A stretch of DNA of 64,000 nucleotides from Candidatus Kapaibacterium sp. (GTDB taxonomy: Bacteria; Bacteroidota; Ignavibacteria; Kapaibacteriales; UBA2268), in NCBI GenBank assembly GCA_963664875.1, contig OY761611.1, positions 1,998,111 to 2,062,110 on the forward strand. The letters are read 5' to 3'. Shown piece by piece: positions 85-60,685 of this stretch; within the stretch, counting starts at the first letter, position 1; the number at the start of each line of letters is the position of its first letter. The position numbers were made by a program, and so were the translations under genes. The notes under the pieces are model-generated. The model had not been told where the DNA came from. It did no database searches and saw only the letters and a list, made by a program, of their open reading frames with translations.

Positions 85-3000
85 TTACTTAACAACAACA
101 ACTTTCAATACAGAATTGAAACCGTTTGCAGTAAGTTTGCAGATATAGCTACCTGAAGTCAATGCAGAAGCATTGAATTCGATAGTGTTAATACCTGCAT
201 TAGCAGTCTGATTGTTTACTAAAGTCATTACTTCATTACCTAATTCATCGAATAATGCGATAGTTACATTTTCTTGAGCAGGCATGTTGTAAGAAATAGT
301 AGCCATAGAAGTTACAGGGTTAGGACCTACTGTAAATTCAAATGTATTAACATCAGCTTCTACTTTAATAACTTTTACAGCGTCAGCAGCTGTTTCAGTA
401 ATTTCGATGTTTCCGTTTTCGCCTTTATTGATAAAGCCTAAAACGTCGTTAGTAGCAGCGTCAACAAATTGATAATCTGCATCAGCATAAGACATAGAAA
501 TTGAAACAGGATAAGTTACACCTTGCAAATTGATAACGCTTTCGTTTTTGTTAGATACATAAGTACCTTCTTCGAAACGTACGTCAAACAATTCAACCAT
601 AGGCATAGGAGGCATTTGGAAAGTAGCAGTGCTAACATTGTTAGAAGCTAAGTACAATGAAGTATTGTGCTGAGCATTATCAACGATGTTTAACTGAGTG
701 CTAGATGCCAAAACTGCTTCGTTATTGTTATAAGTAGCTTTACCAGTATAATTACCACCTTTAAGGTTCAAGAAACCGTTTTTGTCAGTTTTGATCCAGT
801 AACCTCTGCCAGGTTCCATCATGTTTACAGCTACGTAACCATTTTCTAATGTGTATTTGTAAACATTGTGTTTCAAAGTAAATTCAGAAGTTGGTACTTC
901 GCCATTGAATTCATCAAATTTGATATTAGAGATAGAAGTGTTCATTGTAGGACAGCCGATAGCGTTCCATCCACCTTTATCATCAGTATCGCCAGGATAA
1001 ACTCTTACTTCGTAACCTTTGTCTCTAGAAATTTCATTAACAAACGCACCCGCAAATTTTGTATCTACAAGGTTGTTGTATTTTACAAAGTAACCATAAC
1101 CAGGTTTAACGATGTCAGCTGGTTCCCACATATTGTAAGCCCAGTGCATTGGTTTAGTTACAGCATTTGGATATACGTTTTTGTATTCGTTGTTGATTGG
1201 GCTAACAGGTACAGATACCAAGTTCCAACCTTTAACGATAACAGGAGTACCATCAGCATTTACATAGTCAATAACTGAAGGAAGAGTATATTCAATTAAG
1301 AACTCATTGATTTCAGGATCATTGATGTAGTATGTGCCTTTAGCAACTCTCATGTTAGTAGCTTCTTGTGGTACACCGTGCAATACTGAACGGATGAATA
1401 ACTGAGCACCAACCGGGAAGTCAGCAGCGTCCCAAGAAACAACTACAGGGTAGTTTTGTACGCCGTCAGCGTTAAATTTAACATTGTAGATAATAGAGTT
1501 TACAGTGTCTTTAGAAGATCTGATATCTCTTGAAGCATACAAAGGAGCTTCCAAGTTTGGATTGATACATTCGAAACCGTAAGGGATCAATGTTTCTAAA
1601 ACAGGATCAACAGGGTAGAAACGAGCACCAAAACCAGACAATGGGTAATTGAAAGCTCTTTCGCCGAATAACAAGTCAACATTGTCAGTAGCTCTTGGAG
1701 CAGTACCGAATACTAATGAAGTCATGTCACCTGCAGAACCTCTTGAGTTACGTACATTTAATCTGATACCTGTGCCATTAGCAGCCAAAGTTGGTTCGTA
1801 AGGGCTACGGAAATAGATGAAAGTAACTTTAACTCTTACTGGAGAGATTTCAGCATTTTCTGATCTGATAGTTACATAACCGGTATAGATACCTTCTGAT
1901 TCTTCAGCAGCACCTTTTACTTTGTTTTGATCGCAAACGATGTTGAAATATACTTTTTTATCAACAGGACCACTGATGTTCATAGGATCAGCCTGACCCA
2001 TGATACCATTATCGATAAAGATACCATCTCTGAAAGTTTTAGAATCACCTTTTTTAGCTGATTCAACTTCTAACCATTCTTGGTCTGTTTCGATTCTGAT
2101 ATCTCTTAAACGAGTACCTGTAACTATATTTTGTAATTCTAAAACTAATTCACCTTTTGCATCTGATTCATCAGAAGCAGTAATTGGTTTAGTGATTACA
2201 TAGAAAGCACCATTTTGTTCACCTTTGATTGGATCATCTTTTTCGTTGAAACCAATTTTAGGCAATTTATCCATAACACGGATATAAATACTACCTTCTA
2301 CTGTAGGCTCTGTCAACCAAAGCGGAGTCAAGCTGTTATTGATACCAGCCAAACCTGTTTTTTCAGTTGGATCCGGATAGTAGTTGATAATTTGAGGATC
2401 TACAGCTCTGAATTCTTTGAAAGGAGCTTCTTTTCTAATGTTTAAACCATTGTAATTGATTTCCTGTCTGCCAATGTAGATAGGAGCAATTTTTGTCAGC
2501 GGGTTAGTAGCATTAGGAATAACTCTAAAACGGATAAACATCAAAGGACGGAACTCAGGAGTTCTTGGGTCTTCGTTTACCGGTAATGAGTCAAAAGTAT
2601 GTCCAACGATAGTAATTTTGTGACCATGTTTTTTGTTTTCAATACTTGCATTTGGCATGATGTCTTCCAAATAAGATTTATCAGGAACATCATTAAAGTC
2701 AATTGAAAAACCATCTGCAGTACCGATTACTGGTTTACCTTCTTCAGTAGCATAATCAGCCAATTCAGGGATTGATGCAACTGTTTCGTAACCTACGGCT
2801 CTAACCATAGTAGAGTCATAAAAGATATGGAATTTAAAATCTTTTATTGGTTCAGGATTTACCAAGTGGTGTCTATCTGCGAAAGGATGCCACTGATTGC
2901 TGATAAATATAGGCATCAAGAATTCTCTTGGCCCATTATCAGAAGGAGCAACCCAGATACGTCCATCAGGATATAATTCTGTATTATACGACCCATCCGC

Positions 3001-3150
3001 ACCGGTCAAAGAAAGAACCGGAATGGAAGGATTGTCAGCTTGAGCTTTTTCAAATGTTGCAAATGAAAAGCCCATGACTAGCATCAAGCCAAGAATCAAC
3101 TTACTAGTCAACCCCTTTGCTTTAAAAGCTATTGTCATTCTAACCTCCAT
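85..3150 (-). CDS. Secreted 1021-aa protein with a T9SS (Por) C-terminal sorting domain; function unknown
   Basis: Long uninterrupted ORF with an N-terminal signal peptide (KLILGLMLVMGFSFATFEKAQA). The C-terminal ~80 aa (VGPNPVTSMATISYNM...NVTIALFDELGNEV...GSYICKL...VLKVVVVK) match the T9SS CTD pattern (YPNP, D..G..V, GvY, K-rich end). It is the last gene of the minus-strand operon. Confidence 0.7.
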   Translation of the reverse strand: MEVRMTIAFKAKGLTSKLILGLMLVMGFSFATFEKAQADNPSIPVLSLTGADGSYNTELYPDGRIWVAPSDNGPREFLMPIFISNQWHPFADRHHLVNPEPIKDFKFHIFYDSTMVRAVGYETVASIPELADYATEEGKPVIGTADGFSIDFNDVPDKSYLEDIMPNASIENKKHGHKITIVGHTFDSLPVNEDPRTPEFRPLMFIRFRVIPNATNPLTKIAPIYIGRQEINYNGLNIRKEAPFKEFRAVDPQIINYYPDPTEKTGLAGINNSLTPLWLTEPTVEGSIYIRVMDKLPKIGFNEKDDPIKGEQNGAFYVITKPITASDESDAKGELVLELQNIVTGTRLRDIRIETDQEWLEVESAKKGDSKTFRDGIFIDNGIMGQADPMNISGPVDKKVYFNIVCDQNKVKGAAEESEGIYTGYVTIRSENAEISPVRVKVTFIYFRSPYEPTLAANGTGIRLNVRNSRGSAGDMTSLVFGTAPRATDNVDLLFGERAFNYPLSGFGARFYPVDPVLETLIPYGFECINPNLEAPLYASRDIRSSKDTVNSIIYNVKFNADGVQNYPVVVSWDAADFPVGAQLFIRSVLHGVPQEATNMRVAKGTYYINDPEINEFLIEYTLPSVIDYVNADGTPVIVKGWNLVSVPVSPINNEYKNVYPNAVTKPMHWAYNMWEPADIVKPGYGYFVKYNNLVDTKFAGAFVNEISRDKGYEVRVYPGDTDDKGGWNAIGCPTMNTSISNIKFDEFNGEVPTSEFTLKHNVYKYTLENGYVAVNMMEPGRGYWIKTDKNGFLNLKGGNYTGKATYNNNEAVLASSTQLNIVDNAQHNTSLYLASNNVSTATFQMPPMPMVELFDVRFEEGTYVSNKNESVINLQGVTYPVSISMSYADADYQFVDAATNDVLGFINKGENGNIEITETAADAVKVIKVEADVNTFEFTVGPNPVTSMATISYNMPAQENVTIALFDELGNEVMTLVNNQTANAGINTIEFNASALTSGSYICKLTANGFNSVLKVVVVK

Positions 3151-3154
3151 TGAG

Positions 3155-4306
3155 TTATTTAATATTTAAATATCTTACTTTTGCAATTTTATTTTGGGCT
3201 TTTATGACGACTAAATACAATCCAGCACTTTTATCGTCAAAGCTTATTATCTGTCTATCTTGATATTTTGTACAGTTTCCATTCAAATCATATATCTCTA
3301 TAATGTTATCTTGGTCTTTTACGATTATGCTGTTGTCGGCAATTTCGTAAACTGACTGTACATCTACATCTGTGACACTTGTAGTTCTGTTTGCAAAGAC
3401 ACACGTATCTTTTTCAAGAGTTTTGGCACAGTTACAGTCGTTTAAGTCTGCAATCTCTACCTCAATAGACTCATCATAGTTTTCGTTTATCACTCTGTCT
3501 ATTTCAAAATCTAAAAAGTACTCTTGAGTGTTTTCTTTTATATTTAGAACAATATCGTAACTGCTATCTGACTCTATTACATTTGCTATTTCGATGTCGC
3601 TGTTTTTTGCAGCAAAGTTTGAAAATAAGAATTTATCTGATTTTTGAAGTTTCAAAAGAAAATTGCTTACTTTTGCCTCTTCCGGAATATCTAAAATCAT
3701 AGTAGAATTTAGTTTTCCTGTTTCATCAAATTCTTTTTCTTCAGCATCAAAGCTAACTTTTGCATATCTGTTTTCACCTGATTTAACTTCTGATTCAATA
3801 TAGAATGTTTTATTGGCAAAAGCAGGTATTTTACATTCGGATGTAAATGATAATTCTTCTACAACAAGGCTCGCAGAATCCGGACAATCTCCGATATAAG
3901 TAAACTGCAAAGCTATTAACGGCAAGTCTCCATAACTAGGAACATTTATATGTCCACTTAAGATGCCTGCATTTAACAATATATGATTATCATCTATCAC
4001 TTTTATACTAACTTTATCAAACCTCTCAGAAAGAGTATTTAAAGTGGCATAAGTATTACCAAAGTATAGTTTGGTATTATCATATTCCATGTATAAAGTA
4101 ATACCGAACAGTGAGTCAGATGGCTCTATAGTGCCTAAATCTAAATGTATAAGAACGTCTCTTTTGCTGTTTTGAAATACTATTCCGCAAGCATCAGCTT
4201 TTGACTTAGGAATTATTTCTAAGTTATAATCTTTTGCATTGCTCGGGATACTGCTCCAAAAGAGCAGTATTCCGATGCAAAATATATAATAGCTGAGTTT
4301 ACGCAT
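3155..4306 (-). CDS. Secreted 383-aa protein with a T9SS C-terminal sorting domain; function unknown
   Basis: Signal peptide (YYIFCIGILLFWSSIPSNA). C-terminus IIEIYDLNGN...AGLYLVVIKAQNKIAKVRYLNIK is CTD-like. There is a 4-nt gap to the downstream gene and a 1-nt gap to the upstream gene. Confidence 0.6.
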   Translation of the reverse strand: MRKLSYYIFCIGILLFWSSIPSNAKDYNLEIIPKSKADACGIVFQNSKRDVLIHLDLGTIEPSDSLFGITLYMEYDNTKLYFGNTYATLNTLSERFDKVSIKVIDDNHILLNAGILSGHINVPSYGDLPLIALQFTYIGDCPDSASLVVEELSFTSECKIPAFANKTFYIESEVKSGENRYAKVSFDAEEKEFDETGKLNSTMILDIPEEAKVSNFLLKLQKSDKFLFSNFAAKNSDIEIANVIESDSSYDIVLNIKENTQEYFLDFEIDRVINENYDESIEVEIADLNDCNCAKTLEKDTCVFANRTTSVTDVDVQSVYEIADNSIIVKDQDNIIEIYDLNGNCTKYQDRQIISFDDKSAGLYLVVIKAQNKIAKVRYLNIK

Positions 4307-4307
4307 A

Positions 4308-6209
4308 TTATTTGCTTAGAACTACTTTTTCTGTTACAGAAGTATCATTACCTGATAGTCTGATAATATATACACCATTTGCAACAGCATTACCGTTGTC
4401 ATCTTTACCGTCCCAAACGTATTCGCTACCGCTAATTGCAAATGATTTTACTTTGTTACCTAACATATCGTAGATAGCCAAGTTCATATCATTTGTCAAA
4501 TTAGCATTTAAGCTGAATATAGCATTTGAAGAGAATGGATTTTTAGACAACATTTTAATGCCTAATGTATAGTTTGAAGTTTCAACTTGACTTACAGTTG
4601 AAGTCAAATCTGCTACTTCATTATCGTTCAATCTGATACCGCTTAATTTTACTTCTTTTTCATTTAAGCTAATTTCGATATCGCAAACTTTAGAATCTTT
4701 AGCTAAGTCTTGATTAGCACCAGCAATAACTACTCTGTTTTGAGTAAAGCTTACCATCAAATCTTTGTTAGCAAGTTTCACATCAGCTACGTTAGCATTG
4801 ATGTCAAATTTAGTACTAAAAGCACCTTTTACATCGCCATTAACATATACAGGAATAGTATAGTTACCGTTTTCAAGTTTAGTCATTGTACCAAGAACTA
4901 AGTTAGTAGCTTGAACATCAACATCTACAGCTGATTTGCCTTTATAATCAATCGGATGTTTCCAAGGCAACTGAGAAATCTGACCACCTAAGTATTCTAA
5001 TACATAAGCAGCATCATGTTCGTTACATTGGAATCTAATTTGTTTGATAGAAGCAATTGCTTCAGGTAAATCATCAGAGTATTTGTCAGATTTTGCTTCA
5101 ATTCTAACTTTGTTACCATCAACGTCGAAGTAGAAACGACCATCGTGAGTAACGTCGCCATGGTATGCTTGTCTTCTTCTTGCATCATCCAATGGTTGGT
5201 TAGTAGCTACAGATTTCATAATGATGCGAGCATCATTTATAGAAACGAATCTGTTTTGTGGCTGACCTTCGTGAATATTACCTACAGCTTTAGAGAAATC
5301 AACATCGCCATCGCCCCACCATTCTTCGATTTTGTTAGTAGCTTTAGCAATAAATTTGATTCTTGCATCAGATCTTTGACCTGAAGGCTGCCAGATATTA
5401 GTCAAGTCAGTTGTAGTTTTTTGAAGGTTGATGTCTTGATCGTACAACAAACCGTTCATATAGTCATCAGCTTCACCTTTGATACCAACTGAAGCGTCTT
5501 TGTAAACAACTACAGTATTTGGTGAGTTAGGGTTACCACCGATACCGCCGTAGCAAAATTCGATATCGCCTTGAGCAGAGTACAAAGAAGTTGATTTATA
5601 GATAATCAACTGGAAGTTTGCAACGCTTGAAGGTTGATTTTTATCGTTGATATTCAAATTTTTCCACTGAACGATAAATTTATCAGTTTCTTTCAAATAA
5701 GAAATTTCAGAAGCTAAGTAAGAATTTTTTTCATCCAAAACATTTCTGTAGTAGTGGTCACCCCAGAAAGGAGCCAATACGTTTACAGGATATGAAGAAG
5801 ATTCGATAAACAAAGCTTCTGCATCTACAGCAGGAACCATTGGAGGATCGATTCTAACGATCTGATTGTATTGGTTCTTTTCATATTTGCTGAATGTTAC
5901 AAAGCCATTGACGTTGATAAATATTGAGTTATAGACTTCTCCATTATATTCGAAATCAAAACCCAAATCAACCTGATAGTAACCGTCGTCGTAGTCAACT
6001 TCATTTGCCGGAGGCAAAATGAACTCTTCGCGAGGTATAACGGTTTTCTCGTTATCATTTAGCTCTGCATATGGAACTCCGGTTATCAATGTAGCAGGCT
6101 GAAACTCTGTCCATATTTGAGCTTGGAGATTTGGTGATACAGCTGTTAAACTTGCGATAGCGGCAAGTCCAACTGCAACCTTTTTAAATCTCTTCATTGT
6201 TTTCTCCAA
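4308..6209 (-). CDS. Secreted 633-aa protein with a T9SS C-terminal sorting domain; function unknown
   Basis: Signal peptide (VAVGLAAIASLTAVSPNLQAQ). C-terminus LAIYDMLGNKVKSF...DGKDDNGNAVANGVYIIRL...KVVLSK is a typical CTD. Confidence 0.7.
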   Translation of the reverse strand: MEKTMKRFKKVAVGLAAIASLTAVSPNLQAQIWTEFQPATLITGVPYAELNDNEKTVIPREEFILPPANEVDYDDGYYQVDLGFDFEYNGEVYNSIFINVNGFVTFSKYEKNQYNQIVRIDPPMVPAVDAEALFIESSSYPVNVLAPFWGDHYYRNVLDEKNSYLASEISYLKETDKFIVQWKNLNINDKNQPSSVANFQLIIYKSTSLYSAQGDIEFCYGGIGGNPNSPNTVVVYKDASVGIKGEADDYMNGLLYDQDINLQKTTTDLTNIWQPSGQRSDARIKFIAKATNKIEEWWGDGDVDFSKAVGNIHEGQPQNRFVSINDARIIMKSVATNQPLDDARRRQAYHGDVTHDGRFYFDVDGNKVRIEAKSDKYSDDLPEAIASIKQIRFQCNEHDAAYVLEYLGGQISQLPWKHPIDYKGKSAVDVDVQATNLVLGTMTKLENGNYTIPVYVNGDVKGAFSTKFDINANVADVKLANKDLMVSFTQNRVVIAGANQDLAKDSKVCDIEISLNEKEVKLSGIRLNDNEVADLTSTVSQVETSNYTLGIKMLSKNPFSSNAIFSLNANLTNDMNLAIYDMLGNKVKSFAISGSEYVWDGKDDNGNAVANGVYIIRLSGNDTSVTEKVVLSK

Positions 6210-55964: not shown

Positions 55965-57044
55965 ATGAAAACTTTAATATTGCTAATTTCTATTGCTCTG
56001 ACATCCTCTGTATATGCTGACATAATAGAACTTAATGTAATAGACTACAGAACCGGCGAAAAATTAGTTCCTGAGCAGCTGGTAGTTACAGATTTAGCTA
56101 CTAATGCAGATTACATATTTGAAAATACTTCCTCTTTTGATACAGACGCATTGACGAGTGTAACTCAAAATGCTTCTATATCCCAAGGACTCAAAATCTA
56201 TCCTAATCCTGTCGCAGACAGATGTTATATCGAAATATTTTCTAACGGAAACAAATCAGATAATCTGCTTATCTCAAACTCATTGGGACAGTCTCAAACA
56301 ATTCCTATTTCCTTGGTGCAAGGCGATAATGTATTTGAATTGAGTCAGCATAATTTGACAGTTGGCACCTATTATGTAACAACTTCTGAATACAGTTCAA
56401 TTCTCAATCTGACAAATACGGGGAAAAGCAATTCAACTACACTGGAACGAGTTTCAACATCCGAAGCAATGTCGAGTATGATTCTGACTCCTGTTGGCGG
56501 TATATATAGCGTTTTTATTAGAAAAGCAGGGTATAGCAATTATAAATTCTCAAATACCGACTTAACTACAATAATGGATACAGTAAAATTAGTCAACCTT
56601 GACGATTTCATTTACGAATCTACAAAATTTTCATTTAGAAAAATGTCTGCAGTAATTACCGAAATAATTCAGGATCAGTACGGGAATGTTCAAGAAACAC
56701 ATACTCCCTATGAGCCACACTTTGAAGGAGAAATAACAGATAGTAAAATCTTTTTTGATGAAGATTACGATAGTGATTATATGCATGTCACCATAGAATC
56801 AAGCACGAATATTAAAGGCATAGAATTTACTTTAGATGGCTGGTGGCGCTTCCCTTTTGATTCCATAGTCGTTGACGAAAATAGAAAATTTAGTCTAAAA
56901 TTTAACTACGAATACCTTCAAAAATATCATAATCCTGTTTATATCACAAGTCCAACCATTGAATATCGAAGATGGCTGGAAACATTCTACGAAGATTACA
57001 CAAATTCTGACTTCATTGAAGTGTTTGGAAGTGTAGCAAAGTAA
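55965..57044 (+). CDS. Secreted hypothetical protein containing an internal T9SS-CTD-like beta-sandwich segment
   Basis: Signal peptide. Residues ~75-150 (LKIYPNPVADRCYIEIFSNGNKSDNLLISNSLGQ...QGDNVFELSQHNLTVGTYYVTT) match the Por secretion-tail pattern but are followed by another ~210 aa. The region is AT-rich. Confidence 0.5.
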   Translation: MKTLILLISIALTSSVYADIIELNVIDYRTGEKLVPEQLVVTDLATNADYIFENTSSFDTDALTSVTQNASISQGLKIYPNPVADRCYIEIFSNGNKSDNLLISNSLGQSQTIPISLVQGDNVFELSQHNLTVGTYYVTTSEYSSILNLTNTGKSNSTTLERVSTSEAMSSMILTPVGGIYSVFIRKAGYSNYKFSNTDLTTIMDTVKLVNLDDFIYESTKFSFRKMSAVITEIIQDQYGNVQETHTPYEPHFEGEITDSKIFFDEDYDSDYMHVTIESSTNIKGIEFTLDGWWRFPFDSIVVDENRKFSLKFNYEYLQKYHNPVYITSPTIEYRRWLETFYEDYTNSDFIEVFGSVAK

Positions 57045-57148: not shown

Positions 57149-57538
57149 TTGATTTTTGGAATATTGTTTATTGCTATGCAACATATATCTGAACCAATAT
57201 TTAAAAGATATAATTTGGATAAGATTGTTCTACAAAATTCAAATAACAGTGGAAAATCGAATTTATTTGCTGATTCAGTAATAGATGTTAGTTTTAATCT
57301 CTACATGAAAGACACATTTTTGACGGTTGTTTCTGAAGTTTACAATTCAAAAATTAGCTATCCTGTTCATATCGTTGGGGATACTCTTCGGGTTTATGAC
57401 TTAATGCGTTTTATTGATTTTATTCCAAATGGTGATTCTATTATAACCGGATTAGGTAAATTTCCTTCAACAAAAGTGATTACAAAAGATCGGGATGTTG
57501 TATTTAATGAAAGACCAAATTGGTTTTTATTGAATTAA
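57149..57538 (+). CDS. Hypothetical protein (129 aa)
   Basis: Intact ORF in the AT-rich island. No recognisable domain. Confidence 0.35.
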   Translation: MIFGILFIAMQHISEPIFKRYNLDKIVLQNSNNSGKSNLFADSVIDVSFNLYMKDTFLTVVSEVYNSKISYPVHIVGDTLRVYDLMRFIDFIPNGDSIITGLGKFPSTKVITKDRDVVFNERPNWFLLN

Positions 57539-58188
57539 TGTGGCTAAAGAGGCTAAAAATGAAATTTTTGTATAATATAATCCTGATAACACTGATGTTT
57601 ACTTGTAATACTGGATTCAGTATAAAACTTGATACTGATACAAGTATAAAATATATTACTTTAGATGTGAGTATTACTAATTCTCGAAATCAATTTGACA
57701 GTTTGAATGTATTTCAATATGATTTTGATATGATATATCAAACTTCTATAAAGAAGAGAGAAGATTTGCAAAAAGAAAGCCAGACATACATTTTTAGTTA
57801 TATTTATTCTTGTAGTCGGGCTCGAATTATATATATTCCTTACAAGTATAACCAAACTTTTATGATAAGTTTAAATGATACTTTGTTTAATGGAGATTAT
57901 ATTGAGTCAATTGTTAAGTCATATGGAGGATTAAGGGTTTATTCATCAGAAATATTGTTAAAAGAACCAGATTATTATAAAGAATGGATTGTTATAAGAA
58001 TCCATACAGAAGAAAAGCTTGATACTTCGAGTAAATATAAAAGTTACACTTATATTACTAAAGAAGATGTAGAAGAAAAAGATAAAGATAAAAATAAGCA
58101 ATATATAAAGAAAACTACCATTAGTGGAGATACTTTGTATATCAATCTTTTTATCGATTTAGACAAAACTTCTGTAATAAGATATTAA
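57520..58188 (+). CDS. Hypothetical protein (222 aa) with an N-terminal hydrophobic segment
   Basis: Intact ORF that overlaps the previous ORF by 19 nt. It is very AT-rich, K/Y/I-rich, and has no recognisable domain. Confidence 0.4.
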   Translation: MVFIELMWLKRLKMKFLYNIILITLMFTCNTGFSIKLDTDTSIKYITLDVSITNSRNQFDSLNVFQYDFDMIYQTSIKKREDLQKESQTYIFSYIYSCSRARIIYIPYKYNQTFMISLNDTLFNGDYIESIVKSYGGLRVYSSEILLKEPDYYKEWIVIRIHTEEKLDTSSKYKSYTYITKEDVEEKDKDKNKQYIKKTTISGDTLYINLFIDLDKTSVIRY

Positions 58189-58248
58189 AGAATATGTTAT
58201 TGATTAGGTTGACAAAAATGGCAAATTCCTATACTTAAAAACATTTAA

Positions 58249-58407
58249 ACAATACGAGCTAACAGACCACCTTGGCAATGTACAGCTTACTTTTTCTCAT
58301 TATAAATATAGAGAAAGCTATAGTCTGCCACGTTTGAAAGTTCTTTCAAAAAGTGATTACTATCCCTTTGGGATGTTAGTGCCGGATAACTACTATCAGG
58401 ATGGCAG
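58249..58407 (+). pseudogene. Orphan RHS/YD-repeat core fragment, copy 1
   Basis: Translates to KQYELTDHLGNVQLTF..SLPRLKVLSKSDYYPFGMLVPDNYYQDG. This carries the YD-repeat motif (Y.LTDHLGN.RL) and the RHS repeat-associated-core motif DYYPFGM. It has no start codon or upstream gene body and ends at a GC-rich hairpin. Confidence 0.5.
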
Positions 58408-58621
58408 AAAAAAAATTCCCCTCGTTGAGGGGTGGCACGCAGTGCCGGGGTGGAATCTCTCGATGCACAACTGTTTCAATGTAGGAAAATGTAATTTATA
58501 TAGATAAATTTTGCGATATTTTTTTCGGGGGAAGTGATTTATATTAGGTTTTATCCACCCCGCCCTCGCTTCGCTCACGCACCCCTCAAGAGGGGAATGG
58601 AGCAGGTTTTGAGATGTTTTT

Positions 58622-58828
58622 CGCCAAATCGGTCACAAACAATACGAACTAACTGACCATTTAGGCAACGTGCGACTAACTTTTGAAGATTATAAATATT
58701 TTACTGATACTCTGCCAAGACCACGCTTAAAAGTTCTTTCAAGAAATGATTATTATCCCTTTGGGATGTTAGTGCCGGATAACTATTATCAGGATGGCAG
58801 CACATTAGCTCGCTTCAAAGGTCTCTGA
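58622..58828 (+). pseudogene. Orphan RHS/YD-repeat core fragment, copy 2
   Basis: Translates to RQIGHKQYELTDHLGNVRLTFEDYKYFTDTLPRPRLKVLSRNDYYPFGMLVPDNYYQDGSTLARFKGL*. Its 5' junction (cgccaaatcggtcacaaacaatacga) is the same as copy 3. Confidence 0.5.
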
Positions 58829-59016
58829 GCGATTCTATCCATACACTCAAGATAAAAAAGATGTAGATTGTATTACGGCATATTTTTCTTATGTATTCAA
58901 ACCTATTGAAGGGATAACAAGAGCTTCGGATGATGATAGATTAGGACCTTTGGATTCTCATTATATCGAAAATTATAAGTGAGTTTTCAATATTAAACCA
59001 AATAAACCTGGATATA

Positions 59017-59652
59017 TTGAACCTAATCAAAATAAAACTATTGACTCAGAAGCAGGAGAATCAGATGAACCATAAAATTAAAATTTTATTGATGTTTTTG
59101 TTCGTAATTATTATAGGTTTTATAATGTTTGGGAAAATCTTAAAGACCAAATATTATTTATATAATTATAAAAAAAGTAGTGATGCGATATTTTATCAAA
59201 ATGTACAAGATGTAGTTAGTGATTCAATTAGATCTTGGATAGAAAAAAACTATAGAGGTTTTGAAAAAGATGATAAAGTTATATATAAATCTTCAAAATA
59301 TTTATATTTTAACTCAAGTAAAGATAAATGTATTACATTTATATATGAATTTAACGCAAAGCCGGGGAATAGTAATATAATTAGGACAGTATGTTTGTTT
59401 AAAAAAAACGAATACTGGAATGTTTTCACATACTCACTTCCTACATGGTATTATTTTGATGATGTGATACGTGGCTCTAATGTTACCTATCAAATACAAC
59501 AATATTACGACAAATATGAAGAAGAGTTTTTGGATAGAATGGTTCCAAAGTATTATAAATACTTCTTTTGTATAAACGATGGTATGTTTAACTACGAAGA
59601 AAAACAGCTTCTTAAAAAACATAATAAACTCAAATATAGACATTTAAAATAA
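59017..59652 (+). CDS. Hypothetical membrane-anchored protein (candidate immunity or orphan-tip protein)
   Basis: 211-aa ORF with an N-terminal transmembrane helix (KIKILLMFLFVIIIGFIMFGKIL). It lies downstream of RHS fragment 2, is AT-rich and K/Y-rich, and has no recognisable domain. Confidence 0.4.
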   Translation: MNLIKIKLLTQKQENQMNHKIKILLMFLFVIIIGFIMFGKILKTKYYLYNYKKSSDAIFYQNVQDVVSDSIRSWIEKNYRGFEKDDKVIYKSSKYLYFNSSKDKCITFIYEFNAKPGNSNIIRTVCLFKKNEYWNVFTYSLPTWYYFDDVIRGSNVTYQIQQYYDKYEEEFLDRMVPKYYKYFFCINDGMFNYEEKQLLKKHNKLKYRHLK

Positions 59653-59726
59653 GTAACATTCTGATTATTTTTTGAAATTCATTCTTTCAAGTAGCCAAAG
59701 CAAAAGGCATAATGCGGCAAGCATTA

Positions 59727-59800
59727 CGCCAAATCGGTCACAAACAATACGAGCTTACTGACCACCTTGGCAATGTGCGTTTAACTTTTGCAGATTATAG
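59727..59800 (+). pseudogene. Orphan RHS/YD-repeat core fragment, copy 3, out of frame with the downstream kinase gene
   Basis: Translates to RQIGHKQYELTDHLGNVRLTFADYRHG and then diverges. The zeta-like kinase ORF starts in another frame ~80 nt downstream. Confidence 0.45.
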
Positions 59801-59880
59801 ACATGGCTTTTTCCCCAAGACATTTGATACTGCGACAACATCATTTACCTCAATTCCATATTATTTTGTATGTTTGTTGT

Positions 59881-60468
59881 ATGGAACATCCTTCGCTATA
59901 TATTATATCAGGTTGCAACGGTGCTGGCAAAACTACTGCTTCTATTACGGTGTTGCCGGAGGTACTACAATGCAATGAATTTGTCAATGCTGACGAGATT
60001 GCCAAAATTATCTCACCTATGGATCCTCATGAGGCTCGCATTGAAGCCGGGCGGATAATGATTGACAAAATCAGCCAAAATCTTAAAGCTATGACTACTT
60101 TTGCTTTTGAGACGACTCTTGCAACCAAGTGCTTTTCTAATGTTATAAGAGAGGCGCACTCACTTGGCTACCTTGTATCTTTGCTATATTTCTGGTTAGA
60201 CTCACCGGAGCTGGCTATTGCAAGAGTAAAACAGCGAGTTGCCTCTGGCGGACATGACATACCGAACGATGTTATAAAAAGAAGATATTATGCAGGTATC
60301 AAAAATTTGTTTAAATTATATATGCCTATTTGTGATTATTGGATGGTGTTTGATAATTCTTCTTCACATTCTGAGCAGATATGTGAAGGGCATTTAGCAA
60401 ACAGACCGTCGATATTTAACGAGAATTTATTTGTCAAACTACGCAGGCTTTGCGAGAATGAAATGTGA
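59881..60468 (+). CDS. Zeta-toxin-like P-loop kinase (COG4185/AAA_33 family)
   Basis: Walker A YIISGCNGAGKTT, the downstream NADEIA segment, and the C-terminal GGHDIPNDVIKRRYYAGIKNL block typical of zeta-toxin-family kinases. The start is taken at the internal Met (MEHPSLYII); the ORF-track ORF begins at 59788. Confidence 0.65.
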   Translation: MEHPSLYIISGCNGAGKTTASITVLPEVLQCNEFVNADEIAKIISPMDPHEARIEAGRIMIDKISQNLKAMTTFAFETTLATKCFSNVIREAHSLGYLVSLLYFWLDSPELAIARVKQRVASGGHDIPNDVIKRRYYAGIKNLFKLYMPICDYWMVFDNSSSHSEQICEGHLANRPSIFNENLFVKLRRLCENEM

Positions 60469-60628
60469 TTGTTGTGATTTTCAGGAATTGAAACGCAAAA
60501 TACTAAACGGCTTGAAACTATCTCACAAAAAGTTAGTTGAAGAAAAAATTACAACTAATGATAAAATTATAGTTTCCGAAGAAGGCAAAGTAGTTCACAA
60601 AGACCCAAAAACAATCAAAACCTCATAA
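60431..60628 (+). CDS. Small ORF (65 aa) overlapping the 3' end of the kinase gene; candidate cognate immunity/antitoxin, very tentative
   Basis: Intact ORF overlapping the kinase by 38 nt. No recognisable domain. Confidence 0.25.
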   Translation: MSNYAGFARMKCDCCDFQELKRKILNGLKLSHKKLVEEKITTNDKIIVSEEGKVVHKDPKTIKTS

Positions 60629-60685
60629 CGAGCTTTCTGTCGGCTCAGTTGTTATTTCGACCTGTGTATATCCAAGTTAAGTCAA

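Follow-up and report, generated by a model that had tools for sequence, protein, structure and literature searches.

Probable relics of orphan Rhs cassettes beside an independent zeta-toxin-like kinase pair in a Candidatus Kapaibacterium genome

What did three short coding repeats that lack a gene body once belong to, and does the toxin-like kinase gene directly downstream share their history? This question arises in a 64-kb stretch of the genome of Candidatus Kapaibacterium sp. (contig OY761611.1, 37% GC), which was analysed as a whole and is called the window here; the island under study lies at 57.1-59.8 kb. A first-pass annotation, made from the letters alone, had read the locus as displaced RHS tip/immunity cassettes with the kinase as a former toxin tip. 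We put a probability of roughly 80% on a related but different reading, namely that the segment is what decay has left of an island of orphan Rhs/YD polymorphic-toxin cassettes and that the adjacent kinase pair is independent of it. The YD/Rhs-core origin is upheld by a profile search, by the cassettes of relatives and by a content swap in a sibling strain, but no stub is a C-terminal tip.

Three stubs and the proteins they resemble

All three copies of the coding repeat that had been annotated are present on the plus strand (58208/58247..58407, 58622..58816 and 59727..59804), and in-frame stops just 5' of each bear out the statement that no gene body lies upstream of any of them. Stub 1 (58208..58407) holds the last YD repeat and the start of the Rhs-associated core, from VDKNGKFLYLKTFKQYELTDHLGNVQLTF to DYYPFGMLVPDNYYQDG (translation ...KQYELTDHLGNVQLTF...DYYPFGMLVPDNYYQDG); it is cut after GGATGGCAG and covers residues 7-63 of the 129-residue reference core against which all stubs were measured. 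Stub 2 (58622..58828, with homology to 58816; core residues 1-66) extends from RQIGHKQYELTDHLGNVRLTF to DYYPFGMLVPDNYYQDGSTLARF and then meets a premature stop, so that its translation is RQIGHKQYELTDHLGNVRLTF...DYYPFGMLVPDNYYQDGSTLARFKGL. Stub 3 (59727..59804; core residues 1-27) consists of RQIGHKQYELTDHLGNVRLTFADY followed by unrelated sequence; its translation, RQIGHKQYELTDHLGNVRLTFADYRH..., diverges beyond LTFADY, the 80-nt leader of the kinase gene comes next, and the stub, which is conserved in a sibling strain, forms the left limit of synteny with it. Two features ascribed to all three copies hold for only two of them. The identical 5' junction is common to stubs 2 and 3 (cgccaaatcggtcacaaac, 22 nt identical), whereas stub 1 is divergent upstream of aaacaatacgag, and the core motif DYYPFGMLVPD occurs in stubs 1 and 2, whereas stub 3 lacks the DYYPFGM part. 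Moreover, stub 1 reads ...GNVQLTF and not GNVRLTF, as had been spelled.

Within the window the stubs match each other at E = 1e-24 and 1e-13 (tblastn), which found no further copy in the 64 kb, and Tandem Repeats Finder (TRF) called no tandem array of stubs. Synonymous codon differences between the copies outnumber non-synonymous ones (7 vs 3 and 4 vs 2), and thus the copies diverged as parts of coding genes and not as recent local duplicates. The DPxG-type end of the core (NGMEREDE...DPxG) is reached by none of the three, and no toxin domain is left on them.

A word-indexed search for relatives of the stubs gave eight, all short. One of these, P0008, runs on into ...YRYDYQGQYAEKDGETGLHSFELRQWDARIGRWNSTDPYG and matches TIGR03696 at 6.6e-09; both P0008 and P0130 continue from the stub segment onward into the canonical core end. 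A profile built from the window stubs and the eight short relatives was searched against 1.84 billion representative proteins and matched 10,330 of them at E<=1e-3, of which 2136 also pass E<=1e-10. The matched proteins fall into two classes, one of 2.5-5.4 thousand residues with the segment ~350-450 residues before the C-terminus, and one of 350-500 residues with the segment near the N-terminus. In P0144 the stub segment occupies residues 2311-2373 and TIGR03696 residues 2353-2436, and YD repeats precede the segment; in P0136 the segment is at 2867-2928 and TIGR03696 at 2907-2990, preceded by YD repeats and DUF6443. Because the segment overlaps the start of TIGR03696 and follows the YD repeats, the stubs correspond to the final YD repeat together with about a quarter of the Rhs-associated core, counted from its start. 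Remote homology and the comparison with relatives thus support a descent of the stubs from sequence related to the last YD repeat and first ~20 core residues of giant YD proteins of the Fibrobacterota-Chlorobiota-Bacteroidota (FCB) group. In the giant YD proteins of Bacteroidota that are annotated as 'RHS repeat-associated core domain-containing' (TIGR03696, TIGR01643, DUF6443), it is the last YD repeat and TIGR03696 positions ~1-20 that align with the stubs; unlike these proteins, the window stubs are fragments of 27-66 residues that singly stay below every curated model.

The closest relatives are found in assemblies GCA_041596515.1, ERZ21831251 (ctg13067l) and GCA_942490685.1, where the arms head full cassettes: they run through ...RFGFNGMEREDEIAG...YDSRxARWxxxDP into a variable C-terminus, and small immunity-like open reading frames (ORFs) come after. 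An intact arm of this lineage continues into ...RFGFNGMEREDE...YDSRxARWxxxDP and then into a variable toxin and an immunity gene. Among the variable C-termini are Ntox44 in contig L002 and a weak Peptidase_M91 match in contig L003. The cassettes of these relatives form same-strand arrays, among which transposases and a group II intron are interspersed. When genomes are compared, the arms show two kinds of 5' boundary, either CGCCAAATMGG... or a point just before TACGAR, which fits descent from a few ancestral orphan cassettes.

Three details of the relatives' arrays may be added. The upstream edge of the array in L001 (ERZ21831251) carries a complete group II intron on the minus strand (2684-4500; reverse transcriptase plus Rfam matches to D1-D4 and D5/6), which was the only Rfam match of any kind in the window region and in L001-L003. 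Several copies of Transposase_mut lie within the same cassette array. At ~8200-8250 of L001, one cassette arm is interrupted between the YFP|FGM codons by a GC-rich insertion of 14 nt, ATGAGGCGAGCCTC, a hint that small GC-rich insertions build up in the cassette arms of this lineage.

Where the stubs end

On our reading each stub would be the 5' homology arm alone of a former cassette, the toxin parts having been lost, and the three would have been cut in three different ways. Stub 1 appears to have been cut by a GC-rich inverted-repeat element of ~200 bp that resembles a miniature inverted-repeat transposable element (MITE). It lies at 58408..58605, has no assigned strand, and has arms at 58418-58457 and 58554-58597 and an AT-rich centre; a 21-nt linker separates it from stub 2. 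The first-pass annotation had called it a GC-rich hairpin remnant; it is a longer element with inverted GC-rich arms of ~40 nt. The arms are the only stretches of the window above 68% GC, and they pair with a minimum free energy of -69.5 kcal/mol. The window has no second copy. In sibling metagenome contigs (L217, L218 and L221-L224) the element recurs at 80-85% identity, always between two Rhs stubs (for instance at 531-775 and 954-1165 of L217 and at 1005-1213 of L221), and in L217 a 25-nt core of a second, much smaller element, CTGAGCGAGCAAAGCGAGTCGAAGT, is nested inside its left arm. Stub and inverted-repeat element together make up a unit of ~390 nt, and stubs 1 and 2 are spaced 390 nt apart. 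A role of the element as an invertible promoter was considered and rejected, as the centre has one orientation in all four aligned copies.

The second element is a palindromic mini-element of 23-34 nt, within whose truncated copy stub 2 would have been cut, and which is fixed at RF|GF in many cassettes of the lineage. Its left half, GGTCTCTGAGCGA, is found at 58820..58832 on the plus strand, where cassette homology stops: stub 2 ends in ...CGCTTCAAAGGTCTCTGAGCGA, after which there is no homology to any cassette. Where GGATTT would encode the G-F of RFGFNG, relatives have AAGGTCACTGAGCG, a variable part and AGTCGAAGTGT, an insert of 34 nt (26 nt in one copy) that breaks the frame. Seven cassettes of L001-L003 carry it (L001 6495-6530, 8289-8324, 10286-10321 and 17063-17098; L002 2221-2256; L003 307-334 and 1999-2034) and other cassettes of the same arrays do not, and it was not found in 79 Bacteroidota Rhs loci. 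At the core of the 34-nt insert stands a palindrome of 23 nt, GGTCACTGAGCG-N-AGTCGAAGTG, which is very common: at least 134 copies, sometimes in tandem, occur in at least 120 contigs of very diverse metagenomes (L090-L209, e.g. L163 1778-2346, L106 ~3000-3100 and L108 10304-10326). Among the copies listed, 16% are flanked by a perfect stem of at least 6 bp and lie in its apical loop, which is more than chance gives (1% in a re-pairing control). The mini-element has no Rfam family, and a literature search for its sequence found no match.

The most economical view is that a small repeat element inserted a single time into an ancestral cassette arm and from then on was copied together with it. 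Three other roles were tried and rejected. Programmed frameshifting or bypass across the 34-nt insert is contradicted by a UGA in the +1 frame of the L002/L003 variant, by the 26-nt variant, which needs a different shift and has two stops, and by the frequency of the 23-mer in unrelated non-coding contexts; a hammerhead-like ribozyme is not supported, as CUGAGCGA by inspection departs from the CUGANGA core and no Rfam match was found; and the R'/R'' core motifs of an integron attC-like site were not seen by inspection. We raise as a speculative and rather improbable idea that the palindrome and its 26-34-nt derivatives are an undescribed ultra-small mobile or templated hairpin element; if this is true, it might act as a built-in silencer or breakpoint of orphan toxin cassettes.

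Repetitive extragenic palindromic sequences and their paired forms (REP/REPIN), MITEs and Rickettsia palindromic elements (RPEs) are small palindromic repeat elements. The inverted-repeat element and the mini-element resemble them as GC-rich, hairpin-forming repeats that sit inside coding-derived sequence and inside one another, and differ from them in that no associated transposase was identified for either element and neither has an Rfam family.

Stub 3 would have been cut by a deletion that placed it directly before the leader of the gene that follows. At 59706..59730 a perfect hairpin of 10 bp, GGCATAATGC(GGCAA)GCATTACGCC, covers the first 4 nt of the junction of stub 3 and is terminator-like on the minus strand only; a promoter and terminator scan of the region gave nothing usefully above shuffled sequences.

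Strain variation, neighbouring genes and competing explanations

Contigs of a sibling strain (L004-L006) are 95% identical to the window from 59730 rightward, through the kinase, glutaminyl cyclase and CheB genes. Left of 59730 they share nothing with the window, and in its place carry a 38-aa ORF and a 274-aa ankyrin-repeat lipoprotein gene, a distant homologue of which follows an Rhs core at a distance of ~1.2 kb in L062 (a Puia metagenome-assembled genome, MAG), the position expected of an immunity gene. The homology break falls exactly at the 5' edge of stub 3, and thus the stubs mark recombination breakpoints. On this reading the repeated arms serve as recombination substrates through which cassette content is added, deleted or swapped between strains, as shown for stub 3.

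Two ORFs for secreted or membrane proteins lie between and before the stubs and are most likely stranded immunity genes. The first (57559..58188, plus strand) encodes a predicted lipoprotein (209 aa) whose N-terminal hydrophobic segment has a Cys at its end; it is 54% identical to the product of L089 14188-14787, another ORF placed immediately before a core stub, and is most likely the immunity-like end of a preceding, lost cassette. The second, between stubs 2 and 3, encodes 195 aa with an N-terminal hydrophobic helix (59065..59652, plus strand; AGGAG 7 nt upstream of the ATG). It had been given as a 211-aa ORF at 59017..59652, which exists, but the likely start is 59065, as in the public assembly. 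Upstream of both, the ORF list gives a plus-strand ORF at 57176..57538 (120 aa, as in the public assembly, or 129 aa from a TTG at 57149), which has no match in Pfam, NCBIfam or PADLOC and is possibly leftover cassette content. PADLOC found nothing on five ORFs of the region, the kinase included.

At the left edge of the island, a 359-aa ORF (55965-57044) has a signal-peptide-like N-terminus and, in the middle of the protein (residues 78-142), a sub-threshold match to a C-terminal sorting domain of the type IX secretion system (T9SS), at 23.9 bits where the cutoff is 27; possibly the gene has undergone fusion or rearrangement.

Several results weigh against a cassette island. Direct Pfam and NCBIfam scans of the three stubs, RHS_repeat and TIGR03696 included, gave no Rhs or other model at E<=1; the first-pass annotation had proposed this check and named such an outcome as refuting its reading. 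We ascribe the lack of a direct match to the shortness of the stubs, which cover about a quarter of TIGR03696. The window has no full-length Rhs gene within its 64 kb, as had been annotated (its 2665-aa ORF is a BNR/PMP T9SS protein), and the 10 kb that precede the L001 and L089 arrays are likewise free of a giant Rhs gene. The 195-aa ORF matches itself alone in database searches, on ERZ21862665, so that its most likely role, that of an immunity gene, is purely positional. Finally, the unit of stub plus inverted-repeat element recurs with different flanks in sibling contigs, and part of the repetition may reflect the spread of a composite repeat rather than decay of cassettes in situ.

Carried to its end, the last point becomes an alternative in which the stubs are passengers of a ~390-nt composite non-coding repeat, spread by unequal crossing-over or transposition, and never were local cassettes. 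The 390-nt spacing of stubs 1 and 2 and the [stub][element][stub] order seen at 80-85% identity in L217, L218 and L221-L224 agree with it. However, the same 5' boundary occurs without the element in stub 3, in the first stub of L221 and in the stubs of L001 and L089; the differences between stubs are mainly synonymous; immunity-like ORFs are interspersed, one of them with a positional homologue in L089; and TRF found no tandem array. We therefore hold this explanation to be unlikely.

A live cassette-switching system that serves a distant Rhs gene and uses the stubs as functional recombination sites is still less probable, in our view very improbable. Such a system could account for a 5' boundary, CGCCAAATMGG, that is fixed across many contexts and genomes, for 22 identical nucleotides common to stubs 2 and 3 where the following 63 nt differ at 10 codons, and for strain-specific content bounded by a stub. 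Yet no window stub has toxin-encoding sequence, which leaves nothing to switch in, the region has no recombinase gene, and the existence of two boundary classes is consistent with inheritance from ancestral cassettes. Decayed orphan cassettes thus remain our preferred explanation of the stubs.

An independent kinase pair, and what the island is

The kinase gene (59881..60468, plus strand) exists as annotated and out of frame with stub 3. It encodes a stand-alone P-loop kinase of the zeta-toxin family with 195 aa, its own ATG and a Walker A motif, GCNGAGKT, at residues 11-18; the Zeta_toxin model that had been suggested as a check, PF06414, matches at 32.1 bits vs a cutoff of 22.3. Overlapping its stop by 11 nt is a conserved 56-aa ORF (60458..60628, plus strand), a putative antitoxin or regulator; it had been listed as a 65-aa ORF at 60431..60628, which is present, but 60458 is the likely start. 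An AlphaFold2 model of the kinase (predicted local distance difference test score, pLDDT, 85) has its top Foldseek matches in 2p5t, 4z8q and 1gvn (E 2e-07 to 1e-06), the closest folds being PezT, AvrRxo1-ORF1 (template modelling score, TM, 0.72) and zeta toxin; searches of PDB sequences with the kinase and with a kinase profile gave nothing significant.

The kinase has at least 8000 homologues, the best 120 of which are all stand-alone proteins of 186-224 aa. In every context examined, five unrelated gene neighbourhoods, it is joined by an overlapping downstream ORF of 56-59 aa: in the window and in L004-L006, next to genes for CheB and an enoyl-CoA hydratase (L007, 10001-10751), after a ComEA-like gene (L008, 10001-10751, and L009), after MscL in a Prolixibacteraceae MAG (L211, 3001-3751, and L212) and after methylmalonyl-CoA mutase (L213, 3001-3734, to L215). 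The small partner proteins are mutually homologous, with 9 invariant alignment columns. No conserved upstream gene of the epsilon/PezA antitoxin type was found; the upstream neighbours differ in every context examined. As its best homologues are stand-alone and it recurs in unrelated contexts, the kinase is to be regarded as an independent module and not as an Rhs tip.

One could read the kinase as a C-terminal toxin tip of Rhs that was displaced, and the small overlapping ORF as its immunity gene; its place 80 nt downstream of stub 3, the small ORF next to it and a fold shared with toxin kinases speak for this. Such a reading can be dismissed as extremely improbable, since the protein is full length with its own start, its best homologues stand alone, the pair recurs without any Rhs stub in the ComEA, CheB, MscL and mutase neighbourhoods, and stub 3 stops at core residue 27, well short of the DPxG junction to which tips are attached.

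Together with its 56-aa partner the kinase would instead form a self-contained, translationally coupled pair unrelated to the island. The other possibility named by the first-pass annotation, an ordinary epsilon/zeta pair with a canonical upstream antitoxin, does not fit either, because the conserved partner lies downstream. With the epsilon/zeta and PezAT systems (PF06414) the kinase shares a Pfam match above the gathering threshold, the Walker A P-loop and structural likeness to PezT and zeta; it differs in its length (~195 aa, not ~250-290 aa), in the 56-aa ORF placed downstream over the stop codon and in having no upstream gene of the epsilon/PezA type. In Xanthomonas, the zeta-like kinase AvrRxo1 acts on NAD and its antidote is encoded downstream. 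AvrRxo1-ORF1/ORF2 (Arc1) has the best TM-score with our kinase (0.72, normalised to the query) and the same order of kinase and then small partner, whereas AvrRxo1 is a larger type III effector with 18% identity. From fold and gene order, the pair is most likely a toxin-first module of the toxin-antitoxin kind, in which the small protein would neutralise the kinase. The combination of a zeta/AvrRxo1-like kinase of 188-195 aa with an ORF of 56-59 aa is a very widespread two-gene module of the FCB group, found in housekeeping neighbourhoods.

Orphan (displaced) rhs-CT/rhsI cassette arrays lie downstream of rhs genes in E. coli, Salmonella and Dickeya. Like these enterobacterial arrays, the window has core-derived 5' arms without a gene body, all in one orientation and with small immunity-type ORFs; content likewise differs from strain to strain with breakpoints in the repeats, and insertions of insertion sequences or repeats are frequent. 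In contrast to them, the window has toxin-less stubs that stop before DPxG, a main rhs gene is absent from the 58 kb upstream and the 4 kb downstream, the host belongs to the FCB group (Chlorobiota/Bacteroidota-like) and is AT-rich, and the arms begin at the last YD repeat and not inside the enterobacterial core. The island is thus a known kind of thing, relic orphan-Rhs cassettes, in an uncultured FCB-group bacterium. Its value lies mostly in correct annotation, namely a dead orphan-Rhs island with no hidden toxin and a kinase that is not polymorphic-toxin cargo, and in two leads: the uncharacterised kinase/56-aa ORF pair of FCB-group bacteria, and the tiny palindrome that recurs in Rhs arms and hairpin loops.

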